NCBI RefSeq assembly: GCF_006345805.1 | Contig: NC_043001.1 | Location: 44,392,001 to 44,456,000, forward strand | Direction of reading: 5' to 3' | Length of the DNA stretch: 64,000 nt | Source: Octopus sinensis | Taxonomy: Eukaryota | Shown here: piece by piece, positions 3,765 through 61,766 of the stretch | Position numbering within the stretch: position 1 is the first letter of the stretch | How the letters are laid out: the number at the start of each line of letters is the position of its first letter | Position numbers and translations under genes: made by a program | Notes under the pieces: model-generated | The model's database searches: none | What the model was told of the DNA's origin: nothing | Seen by the model: the letters and a program-made list of their open reading frames with translations, nothing else

Positions 3765-4348
3765 ACAGAATTCAATAAATTCAATCATATTTTTCATAAA
3801 TGGAAGAGATTAGATGTTAATATTGATTGAAATTATTTTTATTCATGTAGCCATACAATCATTTCATACAGAAAGACAATAAATTCATTTTAAGAATTTG
3901 GATTGTCAAAAGGTATTCGTCAATATCAAAACTATCTCTTAATAACGGAAACAAAAGTGGAAAATGCGGGCGGCCTAATTGTGGCACATGCCCCCACCTT
4001 TTGGAAGGTAAGAATTCTACTTCAAACAAGGTGAAATATTTAAGATAAAGTAAATTTCACTTGTGCCTCTGAAAACCTAATCTATGTTATTACCTGCTTA
4101 GGTTGCGAAAACCACTATATTGGAGAAACACGAATGTCCCTCAGACGAACAACGCTTCACAAAGAACAAATCCGCTTCCCACAATATAGACAGATACAGG
4201 TCAGTGAGCACGTAGATGTGCTAGGAAGCTTAAACCAAACTTTCTAATTTTCCCTTTTTATCAATGTTCCCAGAACACCTCAGTGCAGCAAGGACTAAAT
4301 AAAGCTGCAACTTTTATTAATAAATATCAACCACAACTTAATACATGA
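3765..4348 (+). pseudogene. Penelope-like element C-terminal relic: Cys-rich linker plus GIY-YIG endonuclease
   Basis: Hand translation gives GKCGRPNCGTCPHLL (from 3959), NFTCASENLIYVITCLGCENHYIGETRMSLRR (from 4053), then LHKEQIR, VSEH and FINKYQPQLNT*. Frameshifted, starts beside (TA)n. Confidence 0.85.
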
Positions 4349-8541: not shown

Positions 8542-9047
8542 AGACTTACAACTGTTTTTCTTCTGTTTTTTATAAGCGCCGAAATGTGTATAGAGATACA
8601 AATAAGATGATAATTTATTTTCCAACACCGAGATGCCGTTAGAACAGCTGACACATTGGGTGAATTACCCTTACTAAGCGAAAAGATTGGTCAAACAGCC
8701 AGAGTCTTAAGAGATATAGGCTCGAGTCCCATGGCTGTTTGTTGACAAATTATTGTATCTCTATACACATTTCGGCGCCTATATATAAATGAAAAACGTT
8801 AGCTTGTTTATATTTATATGCACGTGGTTGCACATTTAGCTTTTAAAAAAGCGTCTAAAAAACAGATTGATATGTCGGCGGGCAGTTTAGCTTAATGATA
8901 AAGCACTTGGCCGGAGTTTTTAAAAGACATGGGTTCGAGACCCATGGCTTTTGGTTGATAAATTTTTCCGCTTTGTAAGGGCAATTTACCCAATATCTCT
9001 GCTGCTCTAATGGCGTCTTTGCGTTCGAAAATAAATTATCATCTTAC
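8540..9047. repeat. Nested inverted-repeat element with tRNA-like (Pol III box) segment
   Basis: gcgccgaaatgtgtatagagataca (~8576) is inverted at ~8755-8779. ~8602-8690 is inverted at ~8960-9047. tagcttaatg and ggttcgagacc boxes lie at ~8888-8943. Confidence 0.6.
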
Positions 9048-22193: not shown

Positions 22194-22494
22194 TATACAT
22201 GAATATACATATATATATATACATTTAGCAATTAAGGACAACTACTTAATAAGGAAAACTTAACAAGAAATGTCAGGTAGATAGCGTAAAAACCTCAATA
22301 AGAGAAAAAATTTCGAAAATAATTATTTCTTATTGAACATATTAATTTATATATAGAGGGAGGGCATTATACATACATGCCAGGAGGCATTCTACATACA
22401 CGCCATACGCTAAGAGGGACAATCAGTCATTTCTACCAAAATATTACTAATCCCCCGAATGCATTTTTCAAAGAAAGACTTTAAAAATATATAT

Positions 22495-22542
22495 AGACCT
22501 GTATCACAGTGATTTCATACTTACGTAATCATCAGCCGGCCT
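22495..22542 (-). ncRNA. Minimal type I hammerhead ribozyme (array copy 1)
   Basis: Reverse complement of the 23173 motif, with one stem I mismatch. Confidence 0.7.
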
Positions 22543-22974
22543 GAATATACTATAAATAAACAACGACCCCGCTTCGCTTAAGCCGATCAGCTAACTGATC
22601 AACATCAACGAAGCACATGGTTGAATTTATATATACTATATCCGGATGAATGGCAAACTTTTACGAATTGCATTTCGGAGAGGACAAGTTTTTTCGGAAT
22701 AAAAATTTAGCAATTAAGGACAACTAATTAATAAGGAAAACTTAACAAGAAATTGTCAGGTAGATAGCGTAAAAACCTCATAAGAGAAAAAATTTCGAAA
22801 ATAATTAATTTCTTATTGAACATATTAATTTATATATAGAGGGGATTATACATACATGCCAGGAGGCATTCTACATACACGCCATACGCTAAGAGGGACA
22901 ATCAGTCATTTCTACCAAAAATATTACTAATCCACCGAATGCAATTTTTCAAAGAAAGACATTTAAAAATATAT

Positions 22975-23021
22975 AGACCTGTATCACAGTGATTTCATAC
23001 TTACGTAATCATCAGCAGCCT
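22975..23021 (-). ncRNA. Minimal type I hammerhead ribozyme (array copy 2)
   Basis: Same core, with a 1-nt deletion in stem I. Confidence 0.7.
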
Positions 23022-23172
23022 GAATATACTATAAATAAACAACGACCCCGCTTCGCTTAAGCCGATCAGCTAACTGATCAACATCAACGAAGCACATGGT
23101 TGAATTTATATATACTATATCCGGATGAATGGCAAACTTTTACGAATTGCATTGTTTATTTATAGTATATTC

Positions 23173-23220
23173 AGGCCTGCTGATGATTACGTAAGTATGA
23201 AATCACTGTGATACAGGTCT
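23173..23220 (+). ncRNA. Minimal type I hammerhead ribozyme (array copy 3)
   Basis: aggcctg-CTGATGA-t-tac-gtaa-gta-t-GAAA-tcac-t-gtga-TA-caggtct: 7-bp stem I, GNRA-capped stem II, palindromic stem III, AUA cleavage triplet. Confidence 0.82.
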
Positions 23221-23646
23221 ATATATTTTTAAATGTCTTTCTTTGAAAAATTGCATTCGGTGGGATTAGTAATATTTTTGGTAGAAATGACTGATTGTCC
23301 CTCTTAGCGTATGGCGTGTATGTAGAATGCCTCCTGGCATGTATGTATAATGCCTCTATATAAATTAATATGTTCAATAAGAAATAATTATTTTCGAATT
23401 TTTTCTCTTATGAGGTTTTTACCTATCTACCTGACAATTTCTTGTTAAGTTTTCCTTATTAAGTAGTTGTCCTTATTGCTAAATTTTTATTCCGAAAAAA
23501 CTTTTCCTCTCCCGAAATGCAATTCGTAAAGTTTGCCATTCATCCGGATATAGTATATATAAATTCAACCATGTGCTTCGTTGATGTTGATCAGTTAGCT
23601 GATCGGCTTAAGCGAAGCGGGGTCGTTGTTTTTTTTATAGTAATTC

Positions 23647-23693
23647 AGCCTGCTGATGATTACGTAAGTATGAAATCACTGTGATACAGGTCT
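23647..23693 (+). ncRNA. Minimal type I hammerhead ribozyme (array copy 4)
   Basis: gcctg-CTGATGA...GAAA-tcactgtga-TA-caggt. Confidence 0.78.
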
Positions 23694-24139
23694 ATATATT
23701 TTTAAATGTCTTTCTTTGAAAAATTGCATTCGGTGGGATTAGTAATTTTTGGTAGAAATGACTGATTGTCCCTCTTAGCGTATGGCGTGTATGTAGAATG
23801 CCTCCTGGCATGTATGTATAATGCCCTCTATATATAAATTATATATATATACATATATATATGAATATACACACATACACGCACACACACACGCACACAA
23901 ACAGGCACACACATACATACTCACACACACACATACACATACACACACACACAAACACACGCACACACACACACGCACGCACGCACACACACACAATGCA
24001 AAAAGGAATATGAAACAAAATTTTTTATGAAGACGCAAAAGAGAGGGAAAAGAGCAGACAAGGAACTTCCTCAGCTCAACAAAAAAAAAGACCAGAACCA
24101 CAACAACGACGACGGCGACAATGACAGGGATGATGGATG

Positions 24140-29369: not shown

Positions 29370-29975
29370 CAGTAAGCTGGCAAAATCGTTAGTACACCGA
29401 GAAAACGCTTAGCGGTATTTCGTCTGCCGCTACGTTCTGAGTTCAAATTCCGCCGAGGTCGACTTTGCCTTTCATCCTTTCGGGGTCGATAAATTAAGTA
29501 CCAGTTACGCACTGGGGTCGATGTAATCGACTTAATCCGTTTGTCTGTCCTTGTTTGTTCCCTCTGTGTTTAGCCCCTTGTGGGTAGTAAAGAAATAGGT
29601 ATTTCTCCTAGCGGCGAGCTGGCAGAAACGTTAGCGCGCCGAGCGAAATGCTTAGCTGTATTTCGATTGTCTTTATGTTCTGAGTTCAAATCGCGCCGAG
29701 GTCAACTTTGCCTTTCATCCTTTCGGGGTCGATTAAATAAGAACCAGTTATGCACTGGGGTCGATATAATCGACTTAATCCGTTTGTCTGACTTTGTTTG
29801 TCCCTTCTGTGTTTAGCCGCTTGTGGGTAGTAAAGAAATAGGTATTTCTCCTGTTTTTACGTTCTGAGTTCGGGGTCGATAAAATAAGTATCAGTTGGAT
29901 ACTGGCATAGATGTAATCGATTTATCCTTCCCTCGAAACTGCTGGCTTTATGCCAAAATTTGAAAGCAATATTAC
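29370..29975 (+). mobile_element. Nested/tandem cluster of SINE family B
   Basis: Repeated gagttc...ggggtcgat...aagtaccag cores and the tail tgtgggtagtaaagaaataggta. Confidence 0.8.
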
Positions 29976-36712: not shown

Positions 36713-36743
<31 letters not shown>

Positions 36744-36744
<1 letters not shown>

Positions 36745-36860
36745 TTAGCAATTAAGGACAACTACTTAATAAGGAGAACTTAACAAGAGATTGTCAGGTA
36801 GATAGCGTGAAAACCTCAAAAGAGAAAAAATTTCGAAAATAATTATTTCTTATTGAACAT
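36744..36860 (-). mobile_element. Truncated dispersed copy of the 482-bp retrozyme-like unit
   Basis: Starts at the same base (tttagcaattaaggac) as 22224 and is embedded in (TA)n. Confidence 0.85.
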
Positions 36861-36885
36861 ATATATATATATATATATATATATG

Positions 36886-39511: not shown

Positions 39512-41761
39512 TCTAAAATAAAAGACAATCATACAAGATAATGTGGTACCGTAATGTACTTTAGACGTTGGATGAAATGTCATTAATCTTAGGACATTGA
39601 GGAAAGTCGTTGCGATTTCCAGAAACTGTAACCCTACCATTAGTGAAGGCCCGTGCTCTAGTAGTTAGAGTGTTGCTCTCACGATCGGGAGATTGCGGTT
39701 TCGACTCCTGGACCAGGAGGTGCATTGTGTTCTTCAGCAAAACGCTTCATTTTACGTTTTACAATGCGATCACTTCGACATCTGACGTGTGACACACCGT
39801 GCATCTATTCAGACACCGTCGATCTGATGGAGGAAGTGAGCTAATGAACAGGATTACGGGGCAAGTTCACCGCCGTCAATTCACCGCGAGGAAAGTTCAC
39901 TGTGAGGAAAGCTTACAGAGAAAATATATCCATAATATCTCACCGAAAATAGTTAAGAACTATTTTACTGAAAACAAAAAAGAAAAGGTGAATTGATGAC
40001 GGAGAACTTTCCCTGGGGTGAGTTGATGACGATGAACTTACCAGACATGAATGTACAGTACAACTATTTAATCACTATAAACTACTATAAACAAATCATC
40101 TGAGCAGTTTGTTCAGCAAGAAATTGTAGAACGCTTATCTGTCATCAACGACATAAGAGGCCATAAATTCTACATGTAGAAGATTTGTATATAGATATAT
40201 TTTTGGTAGCTCGCATAACCTTTGTTGTATTTATTTATGCTCTTCTAATGTTCTGAGCTCAAATCCTACCCAATTCTACTTTGTCTGTCATTCTACCGAT
40301 ATTCATAAAATAAAGCTGGGAGTAATATAGTCTACTAGCCCCCAGAATACCCATATTTCGAGTAAAATATCGTTGGAAATGTAAGGTATACTAGCCATCT
40401 CAATATGGCTAACCACTAAGGGTGGGTGTTACTGTAGCTTGTAGCTCCAGGAGATCATCGTCTCCAGCTGGCTTTAGGCACACCTTCTGTGCCCTTATGG
40501 TATTTGCAAAGGGAGGTCATCCCTCTCTCGTCAACCTAGGTGACACGCACGAACTGCAGTTTCTAGGTATTTGCCTGTCTTCAGCGTACGGCAGTCACCG
40601 GTCGTCGATGAAGAGGGTTGGAAAGTAATATACCTAATCTCAACCGTGTTTTTTCTCTTTTATTCTTAAATCTTGTAGATGTCTGGTAAGAAGCTTGCTC
40701 CCCAGCCACATGGTTATGGGTTGATTCCCACTGCGTAGCACCTTGGGCAAATGTCTTTTATACTCTCGGGTCACCCAAAGCCTTGTGAGTGGATTTGGTA
40801 GACGGAAAACTGAAAAAAGCCCGTTGTGTGTGTATGTATGTGTATATGTGTGTGTATGTGTGCGTGCGTGTGTGCATGCGTGCGTGTGTGTCTTTGTGTC
40901 TTGGCAACCACCGCTTGGCAACTGGTGTTGGTGTGTTTGTATCCCCGTAATCTAGCGGTTTGGCAAGACAGATCGATAGAATAAGTATCAGGCTTTAAAA
41001 AAAAAGTACTGGGTTCGATTCATTCGACTAAAAAATTGTTCAAGACGGTGCTCCAGCATGGCCGCAGTCTAATGACTGAAACAGATACACTTTCTTTAGC
41101 AAGTGGTACCAGACGAAAATAAAATGCTAGATATTTACTATGAAATAAATATGGCGGACCTATTTTGAACATTAACACCGCCAATACTTACACCACAACC
41201 AGTCTTACTAATAACTAAACAACCATCATCACAACCAGAACAACACCGCAATATAACCGCAAGAACAGCATAAACACCAAACAATACCTCGGAACCCTAG
41301 CACAATCACAACGCTATTACAAGGGGTTAGCAAACAAAATGCGTTCTTAAGCATTTACAGTTCGACCCTGCTAGAAATAACAACCAAATTTCTAACGAAT
41401 CACGTTCTACTTAATTAAAGAACACATTGAAAAATATATAGAGAAATAGCGGTTTGGTAAAAAGAAAAAAAGAAAAAAATAATTAGTACTGGAGTTGATT
41501 TGTACGATTAGCCTCCTAACAGACACATTTTTTTTCACTTTCCATGCAAAAAATTTTTTTTTTAATTATTTATTTTGAATCTGTATATATGGAAGAATAA
41601 GTACACGAATTATCTTGGATCAGTTGTGATTTTTATTATGAAGCTACTGATAGTTAGTGATACAAAATGAGAATAACATCATGAACGAAGTATTTTGGGT
41701 AAGAATTAAGTGGCAGATTCCTCAGTACAGTGAACGTATATTTTCGTTCAAATATATATTT

Positions 41762-44344: not shown

Positions 44345-45207
44345 CTACTCATATGCATGTATACCTATACATCTTTATGTTTAGAAATAAATGTATACAT
44401 ATACAGCTATACACACATACACAGGTATACACACATACACACACATACATAGGTGTAGGTGTGGCTGTGTGGTAACAAACTTCGTTCCAAAACACATGCT
44501 TCTGGGTTTAAATTTAGATTTAAAATGATAAGGGTGAGAAATTGAATATTAATTTGATTGATATGAATTGAAAACCAGTGGTGTAGCATACAGGACCATA
44601 TCGGATCTTCTAGCAAAATGGATGTCCACTCTTAATGGTTCATCCCTCTTATATAATAGTTTGACTTTAATAGTTTCAGTATTAAAGTGAAAGTATCTGA
44701 CATTACAATAGAGAGGTGTTTTTGTTTCACAAATAGTGGAGAAGATATGATATTGTTGTAGGCTCGTCCTAGGCAAGAAGTTAGAAGTTTTTTTGCCCAT
44801 GGCACTACATGGACCCTAAGTAAGGCATGTGTAAAAATTGAATGAAATTGGTTGTGTAGTTCTCAAGTTTTAGGTATTCATAGTGGAGAAGATATATTGC
44901 TGTGGACTCGCCCTAGGCAAAAAGTTAAAAAAAAAATGCCCATGACACTCTCTGGACCCTAAGTAAGGCATGTGTAAAAATTGAATGAAATTGGTTGTGT
45001 AGTTCTCAAGTTTTAGGATTCATAGTGGAGAAGATATATTGCTGTGGACTCGCCTAGGCAAAAAGTAAAAAGAAAATTTGCCCATGACACTCTCTGGACC
45101 CTAAGTAAGGCATGTGTAAAATTTGAATGAAATCGGTTGTGTAGTTCTCAAGTTTTAGGGATTCACACAGACAGACACACATTCTCAGTTTTATATATAT
45201 AGAAGAT
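41762..45207 (-). mobile_element. Composite Helitron-like region with nested SINEs and ~120-bp subterminal tandem repeats
   Basis: Minus-strand 3' end cgggcaacgccgggtagctctgCTAG at 41762. 5' end tcttctatatatataaaactgagaatgtgtgtctgtctg at ~45205. A second 5'-like end at ~43435 suggests two elements. Confidence 0.6.
44732..45165. repeat. ~3 tandem copies of a ~140-bp unit
   Basis: atagtggagaagatat...cctaggcaa...ggaccctaagtaaggcatgtgtaaaa..tgaatgaaat.ggttgtgtagttctcaagttttagg is repeated. Confidence 0.9.
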
Positions 45208-60200: not shown

Positions 60201-61347
60201 TGTTCTATAACAGAGAGATATTCTATGTATGTAGGTATGTATATATGAATGAATGTATGTGGATGCATGTGGATGTATTCATATATGTACGAGTGTATGT
60301 GTATGTACATATTCCAAATATGTATAAACGCACACATATTCATAAGAATAAAAACTAGTTGGTTGTACATACCACGGTTGTAAATAAATATATGTAAACA
60401 AACATGTAAGTAAGCATAAATGCTATCGTGTATGCATGATAGTGGCATTTATATTGTTTATACTGATGTATTAACATGCGCTCATGCACGAGCATGCATG
60501 CGCGTGCGCGCGCAAACATAGACGTTTAATGTATTAATGATTGTCATTCGATACATTCATATGAAATACACTATATCACCTGGAATTAGTTTAGTCACAA
60601 AAGGTAAACATGCACGACGCCCTGTGCCGCGATTGCTGTTGCGATACACACAATGCAATGCGTAGACCTCTTTGCAGTCGCGTTATCTACTAAAAATAGC
60701 AGCAAAAAAAATCTTCTCAAAAATTACATCTTGCCTTCAGGGAAAACGAAGGACACATTGGATAATATAGCCCCGCGTTCGTTTTATTTGTTTCTTTGGT
60801 CTGTCGTAAGAGGCTGTGCCCATGCTCTTCGCATGCCCTCGAAAGCCTGTGAGGTCGTTGGGGTTCAAGTTCCTCTTAAACAGTTTCAAGTCAACGACTG
60901 TAAGAAAAGCATGTGCTGATGGAAGGCGAAGGAATTCTCTAGGGCCTATGCACGCGGTCGAGGTGGATAAAACTAGGCGCAGTGGCTTATGTAGAGTTTG
61001 GGACGGGAAAATGGGTACAATATAGATGATGAGAGAAAGAGAGGTAAATGAAGGTGGTACGAGATTAACTGGGTCCGAAGCGCAGAAGCCACAGTAGCAG
61101 TAGTAAAAATTGTAGACGAAAAGACAGCACGTCTGTTGACCAGATGTTGGATTATGTTGTTTAAAAGAAAAACAAGTTCGTCCCGACTAAGACACCTTGG
61201 ATTTTAAATCCGCTCAATCAGGCTGTCTCTGGGTTAAACAACAACAAAACACGACCATGTAAACACGAATGCTAACATTTCTGACATTGTAAAGGCACTG
61301 AGCATCTGCTTAAATCATCCCAAAATTATTGCACTAAAATTAATGCA

Positions 61348-61766
61348 TACCTATTTCTTTACTACCCACAAGGGGCTAAACACAGAGAGGAAACAAGGAC
61401 AGACAAACGGATTAAGACGATTATATCGACCCCAGTGCGTAACTGGTACTTATCTAATCGACCCCGAAAAGATGAAAGGCAAAGTCGACCTCGGCGGAGT
61501 TTGAACTCAGAACGTAACGGCAGACGAAATACTTATTTCTTTACTACACACAAGGGGCTAAACACAGAGATGACAAACAAGGACAGAAAAATGGATTAAG
61601 TCGAATATATCGACCCCAGTGCGTAACTGGTACTTATTTAATCGACCCCGAAAGGATGAAAGGCAAAGTCGACCTCGGCGGAGTTTGAACTCAGAACGTA
61701 ACGGCAGACGAAATACTGCTATGTATTTCGCCTGGCGTGCTAACGATTCTGCCAGCTCGCCGCCTT
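61348..61766 (-). mobile_element. SINE family B partial tandem dimer with 15-bp TSD
   Basis: TSD actaaaattaatgca at 61333-61347 and 61767-61781. Confidence 0.85.

Follow-up and report, generated by a model that had tools for sequence, protein, structure and literature searches.

Metazoan retrozymes without long terminal repeats (non-LTR retrozymes) are described as non-coding tandem units of low GC content, arranged in dispersed arrays, each unit bearing a type I hammerhead ribozyme, and as co-occurring with Penelope-like elements (PLEs) (PMC7229834, 10.64898/2026.07.22.740005), of which retrozymes are regarded as non-autonomous derivatives (10.64898/2026.07.22.740005). The same characteristics are found in a tandemly repeated unit of about 480 bp in Octopus sinensis, here referred to as the unit, two head-to-head arms of which occupy positions 22223-23839 of a 64,000-nt stretch of contig NC_043001.1 (44,392,001 to 44,456,000); the window denotes this whole stretch.

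Two further groups are closely comparable. Endonuclease-positive (EN+) PLEs form partial tandems and inverted 5'-truncated copies in head-to-head geometry; their targets are (TA)n or otherwise rich in AT, a hammerhead lies upstream of the ends, and one end has a tail (PMC8557442, PMC3846280, PMC11167929). The tail, 30-40 bp long and often present at one end only (PMC8557442), is set by two internal start sites of the reverse transcriptase (RT), both target strands being cut and extended with the use of unprocessed RNA (PMC11167929), and the origin of tandem or inverted PLE copies with a one-sided tail has been called unresolved (PMC8557442, PMC11167929). Non-autonomous Chlamys PLEs of green algae, such as MRC1, are non-coding, multicopy, head-to-tail and moved in trans by PLEs, and have 3' sequence in common with autonomous families (PMC8557442). 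The comparison covers parts of 10.64898/2026.07.22.740005, PMC11167929, PMC4209133, PMC7229834, PMC8557442, PMC3846280, PMC6962438, PMC4640811 and PMC8869645.

With 458-494 bp, the unit exceeds the 150-450 bp given for retrozymes in PMC7229834 and lies inside the 51-972 bp of 10.64898/2026.07.22.740005. It differs from metazoan retrozymes in that its circles are putative and that no relative serving as a pseudo-long terminal repeat (pLTR) was found in the 16 GIY-YIG loci examined, and its head-to-head arrays with two fixed ends do not appear in the parts of the retrozyme descriptions compared ("inverted" occurs 0 times in that of PMC7229834). It shares the EN+ PLE traits listed above but, unlike those elements, lacks a reading frame and can carry long multimers on both arms; its tail measures ~120 nt (~100 in subfamily 3) against 30-40 bp (PMC8557442), and the pairing of a tailed with an untailed arm is near-obligate, whereas in EN+ PLEs the tail is "optional" or "often at one end" (PMC8557442, PMC3846280, PMC11167929). 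The unit resembles the Chlamys elements in the traits given, although no sharing of 3' sequence with autonomous families was found for it in the loci examined. Hammerhead tandem repeats mobilised by a PLE are already known as a class; relative to the literature compared, the 100-120-nt tail, the near-obligate pairing of two ends, the multimers on both arms and a retrozyme-specific long interspersed nuclear element (LINE) are new. No prior description of the unit family was found in the literature searched, which lay outside Repbase, Dfam and the preprint supplements, so that the family may already be catalogued there.

The unit is probably, at roughly 85%, a non-LTR retrozyme that moves as a non-autonomous Penelope-like element. 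On the retrozyme side stand the type I hammerhead in each tandem unit and the short, dispersed, low-GC units without protein coding; on the Penelope side stand the preference for AT-rich or (TA)n targets, the inverted 5'-truncated copy and two fixed 3' ends with a one-sided tail. The original prediction, made from the window's letters alone, had proposed a non-coding, hammerhead-bearing tandem element of retrozyme or Penelope-like type, moved in trans, and this agrees with the dispersed young family, the TA targets, the 15-bp target-site duplication (TSD), the inverted 5'-truncated arm and the tail; its interpretation as a whole is partly supported. The animal retrozyme-PLE link has so far rested on co-occurrence and pLTR similarity, to which the unit family adds evidence at the level of insertions, hundreds of them young and with strictly paired ends.

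Paired outer ends in TA targets

The informative feature, absent from the original prediction, is the presence of two fixed 3' ends and their strict pairing. Unit positions are numbered by phase, phase 1 being the base directly after the predicted hammerhead cut. The outer ends of insertions lie at phase ~143-156 (End A) or 271-277 (End B) and are joined to (TA)n; because they are ~120 nt apart, A and B can be scored without doubt. Two samples were examined, one consisting of 25 loci chosen by similarity together with the window (27 insertions: 24 inverted, 3 single-armed), the other of 25 loci taken in order along chromosome C1 (18 inverted, 6 single-armed, 1 abutting a gap). Inverted head-to-head insertions amount to 42/52 overall (24/27 and 18/25), and 41 of these 42 combine one End A with one End B: 23/24 in the first sample, the exception having one end at phase 87, and 18/18 in the second, where one insertion with a 23-nt arm was seen by eye and confirmed by an end-pattern search. 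A positional check on C1, made on the matches listed and at loci partly overlapping the samples, showed mixed A+B ends in 29/29 opposite-strand pairs less than 10 kb apart, besides two same-strand neighbours. In the two sister subfamilies, for which the queries required one B arm, clear A+B pairs were found in 15/17 and 15/19 inverted insertions, the remainder including one B+B and one near-B+B.

The inner ends, by comparison with these fixed outer ends, vary in position, and most of them show 1-2 nt of microhomology. The target-site repeat, 15 bp long in the window, contains a non-TA letter at 8/29 loci, the remainder being pure TA and hence uninformative. The A+B pairing amounts to a strict version of the Penelope tail and agrees with double priming at two sites inside the RNA. 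The strictness of the pairing limits each event to a single priming at A and a single one at B; such double priming is considered highly probable, and we infer that an asymmetric RT dimer may cause the strictness.

The window locus, its family and its hammerhead

The features of the window that belong to the unit family, apart from the hammerheads, are as follows.

22210..22224, no strand: left copy of the 15-bp TSD, in an interrupted (TA)n tract; the identical 15-mer opens the right flank, with the single interrupting C in register
22223..22343, minus: tail from End A to End B, ~120 nt (121 nt), in the left arm only; equivalent ends in the family and in two sister subfamilies
22223..23153, minus: left arm, 1.94 units, RNA sense leftward, starting at phase 308 and finishing at End B (phase ~277)
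23043..23153, no strand: centre without a pairing partner, and the head-to-head junction, where phase 308 meets phase 419 with 2-nt microhomology at 23152-23153
23152..23839, plus: right arm, 1.45 units, RNA sense rightward, finishing at End A (phase ~143-156)
23214..23686, plus: complete cut-to-cut monomer, 473 nt here against 480 in the family
23585..23601, plus: LINE target site, phase 378-394, duplicated on LINE insertion in other copies and empty in the window copy
23840..23854, no strand: right copy of the TSD, matching the left 15-mer
36737..36873, minus: older separate insertion in (TA)n, at 91% identity, made up solely of the tail from End A to End B

The minus and plus arms overlap by 2 nt at the strand switch and pair with each other (23152-23840 with 23042-22344) at 95.7% over ~690 bp, which leaves the ~109-nt centre (23043-23151) and the 121-nt left end (22223-22343) without a partner. 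The TSD is modest evidence because its sequence is of low complexity. The array contains no open reading frame (ORF) of 150 aa or more, and the RT and GIY-YIG reading frame of an autonomous Penelope-like element was not found in the window unit. The array had been described as units of ~482 bp with four hammerheads in tandem and inverted order; the hammerheads and the order stand, and the extent is 1.94 plus 1.45 units, with only two complete cut-to-cut monomers instead of four units and a period of 479 (480-481 in a long array). The strand switch placed at ~23153 with ~110 nt unpaired was borne out, the arms meeting at 23152-23153 with ~109 nt unpaired. The worry that the inversion might derive from a fold-back read is removed at the level of the family, because the head-to-head layout recurs at dozens of loci; the array is confirmed as real and its architecture, with small corrections, as first described.

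A DNA search of the genome returned at least 232 unit matches at ~95-98% identity among the 31 candidates scored of 1,192, and the exact 34-nt hammerhead core occurs 1,333 times (686 + 647), against 0 for a control pattern. Patterns combining an end with TA gave 366 and 403 forward-strand matches, reverse-strand counts being inflated by overlapping matches, which indicates several hundred insertions. Two sister subfamilies adjoin other loci, one of 458 bp at 91% and one of 494 bp at 66-68%, identity among the three subfamilies being 66-91%. The genome-wide search called for by the original prediction thereby assigns the window unit to a dispersed, young, low-GC, non-coding family.

Each unit in the window carries a hammerhead core.

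22495..22542, minus: type I hammerhead, intact core, one stem I substitution; predicted cut after 22502
22975..23022, minus: type I hammerhead, intact core, one-base stem I deletion; predicted cut after 22982
23173..23220, plus: intact type I hammerhead; predicted cut after 23213
23646..23693, plus: type I hammerhead, intact core, stem I reduced to 5 bp by a one-base deletion; predicted cut after 23686

The core is identical in 4/4 copies. The hammerhead at 23173-23220 has a stem I of 7 bp, a stem II of 3 bp behind a U.U at 10.1/11.1 and a near-palindromic stem III (computed self-duplex -10.1 kcal/mol), with H17 at 23213, the cut position originally proposed. A hammerhead with stem I had been claimed for every unit, and this holds for the core, whereas the full 7-bp stem I is present in this one copy only; in each of the other three, one base of the 5' strand of stem I is deleted or substituted, because of which a strict descriptor matched 2/4 copies (mean 0.1 loci per window in 50 approximate dinucleotide shuffles). 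As the intact form of stem I is found in 198 copies among the fetched loci, the defects in the window are probably sequence errors or decay. The proposed Rfam check failed to recognise the motif: no hammerhead or other credible match was obtained for the window at E <= 1, for the array even at E <= 10, or for five loci at the gathering score.

In an alignment of 20 units, stem I shows compensatory change in 5/6 pairs across the three subfamilies, 15/69 predicted pairs vary on both sides against 0-3 with the partners slid, and a long predicted stem encloses the region of Ends A and B; this covariation is support and not proof, because the lineages behind it are three and related, and the alignment in which it was scored also yielded the structure. 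Two other readings of parts of the unit were rejected: a 5S rRNA likeness of phase 395-420 had no Rfam support and was dropped, and a remnant ORF start at phase ~308 gave way to base pairing, which accounts for the stretch, subfamily 3 stopping after four codons and not preserving the one ATG context as an open frame.

Template, partner enzyme and competing explanations

Four sets of sequencing-run contigs (X1, X2, X4 and X7) were examined, in which the RNA nature of the runs is guessed, none being recorded as RNA. X1 and X4 come from organism A, in two studies, and this organism may differ from that of the genome. Relative to the window, X1 shows A>G/T>C at 29/29 differing places and X4 at 26/31, with a density of up to 21 in 132 nt, whereas A>G and T>C account for 37/173 distinct variants among genomic copies; at 27 listed places, the run letters make up 1 of 6,545 genomic letters. 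No such spectrum was seen in X2 and X7. Clusters of A>G/T>C changes are the pattern left by adenosine-to-inosine hyper-editing of double-stranded RNA (dsRNA), which may have occurred in the two presumed RNA runs X1 and X4. The claim that a read-through transcript would form dsRNA gains indirect support from these editing-like changes, the pairing of ~690 bp having been computed in the window. One X4 contig spans a head-to-head junction. Joints in the run contigs that go back by 474-478 nt are compatible with either a circle or a tandem, and no joint matches a spliced intron over the hammerhead, the contigs being unable to exclude one.

Evidence on the template comes from variants private to single loci. 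In 286 segments analysed, private substitutions are fixed in all units of both arms, 14/14 at L045 and 18/18 at L050, the private letter of L050 occurring also in one unit of L051. Fixation across both arms implies a bottleneck of one unit followed by re-amplification, most simply through repeated copying of a circle, by which a new variant would enter each unit of both arms; the fixed variants favour repeated copying of one monomer. One arm of L040 has a variant unit as its third and again as its seventh, which gives a spacing of 4 units.

A different picture is offered by the composite L036/L073, whose first arm runs from End B through five units and a full 5.26-kb LINE into more unit sequence, while in the other arm the sequence next to the inversion centre is the final 630 bp of that LINE, which shares its 3' junction with the first arm and has no duplication upstream. 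This composite was probably produced by copying through at least five uncut hammerheads plus the 5.3-kb LINE, two separate LINE insertions being the less likely alternative. It stands against the cleaved monomer as the sole template, as does the finding that among 81 arm 5' ends just one falls within 3 nt of the predicted cut, the expected pile-up of 5' ends at the cut having failed to appear. The sole arm starting exactly at the predicted cut is at the L050 junction. A proposed descent of L032 from L036 was withdrawn, as the LINE junctions and duplications differ.

These observations can be accommodated in a stepwise model. The unit would be transcribed as a structured RNA, as covariation and editing-like changes suggest, and a Penelope-type RT/GIY-YIG protein supplied in trans would bind this RNA and cut both strands of the (TA)n target. 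The two target 3' ends would prime at internal RNA sites ~120 nt apart, one at A and the other at B; the cDNAs would span variable numbers of units, and their ends, to judge from the junction pattern observed, would be joined via microhomology into head-to-head arms. The template would effectively be multimeric, most likely often a hammerhead-cut, circularised monomer copied repeatedly and sometimes an uncut read-through. This mixture of circle and read-through is somewhat favoured. A more elaborate three-tier system is tentative: in it, an asymmetric Penelope RT dimer would be bound to prime one target strand at A and the other at B, with a ribozyme-made circle as template, the dsRNA of the head-to-head product would be edited by ADAR, and a LINE would have become specific to one hairpin of the unit. 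If it were true, both concatemer arms would be written in one event, ADAR hyper-editing across the hammerhead would damp the element, and the hairpin-specific LINE would be able to ride the Penelope machinery.

Candidates for the partner enzyme are found in the genome as young, intact frames with RT and GIY-YIG, of 781 aa and 775 aa. The 781-aa family also has two end sites in (TA)n, separated by ~35 bp and both preceded by AAAT as at A and B, and for this reason the family is the best guess for the partner RT, although the assignment is speculative. A search by tblastn with three PLE proteins gave only scattered fragments near unit loci, and in 16 of the 147 GIY-YIG loci listed, sequence shared with the unit was present only as chance neighbouring unit insertions. 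At 3962-4345 of the window lies a broken piece of GIY-YIG sequence with a relationship to the 781-aa Penelope-like family. The young Penelope-like family at L057-L060 has an extra upstream frame of 479 aa without a Pfam family, 92-bp repeats in its 3' region and two TA-joined ends, with no hammerhead by the descriptor used. The hammerhead of the 775-aa family (L063 ~4200, L066:5732) has a U.U at 10.1/11.1, as in unit subfamily 1.

Several observations weigh against reading the unit as a ribozyme-bearing Penelope-like element. The minimum free energy fold of a single hammerhead is inactive (-10.3 against -8.3 kcal/mol for the active fold), its folding z-score of -0.63 is not significant, the 10.1-11.1 pair is missing in the hammerhead of the window's subfamily, and 1/9 predicted retrozyme dimers cleaved in the part of 10.64898/2026.07.22.740005 compared; the dependence of the covariation on three lineages and on its own alignment belongs here as well. 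As to the partner, the unit is not the pLTR in any of the 16 GIY-YIG loci examined (147 listed, 5,029 candidates), local alignments between the unit and GIY-YIG loci score no better than shuffled sequence, and two patterns taken from a loose end in run X7 had 0 matches. With regard to the template, polishing of the assembly could have exaggerated the homogeneity within loci, mosaic arrays exist (L031 combines two haplotypes, 7/13 units), and priming of A and B in the same unit failed at the single testable locus (3 against 5 full units past the LINE).

Among the alternatives, the one that survives best, though unlikely, retains Penelope-type mobilisation with a hammerhead near-silent in vivo, no circle and linear read-through as the only template, long uniform arrays being produced from short insertions by expansion at the DNA level. 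It draws on the L036/L073 composite, with the full LINE and five units in one arm and the 5'-truncated LINE with the same 3' junction in the other, on the 1/81 arm ends at the cut, and on hammerhead mutants having had no effect on insertion in vitro (PMC11167929). It must be set against the retention of stem I by compensatory change across 66% divergence and against the fact that linear copying by itself makes arrays shorter, never longer, and would leave private variants unfixed in sets of 9-18 units; L036, moreover, may instead hold two separate LINE insertions. The strict form of the original model, in which the cut, circularised 480-nt monomer is the sole template, is a little less probable still: uniform haplotypes across both arms, the conserved ribozyme and the circles documented for other animal retrozymes (PMC7229834) speak for it, but the L036/L073 composite, the mosaic arrays of L031 and the 4-unit spacing of the L040 variant do not agree with it.

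Mobilisation of the unit by a LINE-type enzyme, for example that of the LINE targeting the unit, through L1-like twin priming is very improbable. The LINE is physically associated with the unit and head-to-head arms with microhomology resemble twin priming, but the unit has two fixed internal ends and no A-rich tail, and it targets (TA)n whereas the LINE's own ends lie in non-TA sequence or in the unit. That the unit is a satellite or fold-back element of DNA alone, without an RNA stage, to which tandem arrays of up to ~17 units might point, is more improbable again and is largely refuted by the end pattern of fixed 3' and variable 5' ends; the insertion of a tail by itself, the covariation of RNA type, which includes G.U pairs, and the editing-like changes also speak against it. 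An inversion arising from a chimeric read or assembly error is scarcely credible, because, although the window's inter-copy differences are mostly single-base indels, the two arms differ in their outer ends, their flanks are unrelated and bear a duplication, 42 insertions with differing junctions share the layout, and the X4 contig crosses such a junction.

For the preferred reading as a non-autonomous Penelope-like retrozyme, the unit family supplies both a short RNA and a simple (TA)n target with which to test it in vitro, and its variants can discriminate a circular from a linear template.

The LINE in the unit and other repeats

The LINE inserted in the unit is young and encodes a zinc knuckle (ORF1), APE and RT. 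Its 3' motif has 23 exact copies in the genome, 15 of which are joined to unit phase 378 (3 already seen in the unit and 12/20 others), in at least four unit haplotypes, the remaining 8 lying elsewhere. Its duplications measure 17 or ~34 bp; the loci are L032:3451-8713, L073/L036 and L162-L181, some being tandem LINE-duplication-LINE arrangements, and some of the 15 copies may descend from one insertion carried along with the unit. The nearest named relatives of its protein are from Argonauta, in keeping with the cephalopod host originally suggested. The element may belong to the Tx1 clade, its homologues carrying no clade names. It resembles the target-specific APE-type LINEs of the Tx1 clade in its zinc-knuckle ORF1, APE, RT and insertion at one site of a multicopy repeat, but differs in that its target is a hammerhead retrozyme; known targets of such LINEs include "other TEs" (transposable elements) (PMC4640811, PMC8869645), and no report of a LINE targeting a hammerhead retrozyme was found in the literature searched. 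Such a LINE would represent a new target type for site-specific retrotransposons.

Further hammerhead-like motifs were observed. One of type I with a palindromic stem III lies at ~40545-40592 of the window on the minus strand, with a similar one at L063:8021; a minimal motif with a 2-nt stem III region lies at ~36146 (minus) and at L095:1224, the downstream sequences being similar. Another hammerhead-bearing repeat is present at L038:1087 and at L081:1194 and 1270, forming in L081 a head-to-head pair adjoining the unit. Elsewhere in the window, a tRNA-like match barely above the Rfam gathering score lies at 8881-8953, and short tandem duplications are found at 29375-29852 (period 243 bp), 44733-45165 (142 bp) and 61347-61717 (184 bp).
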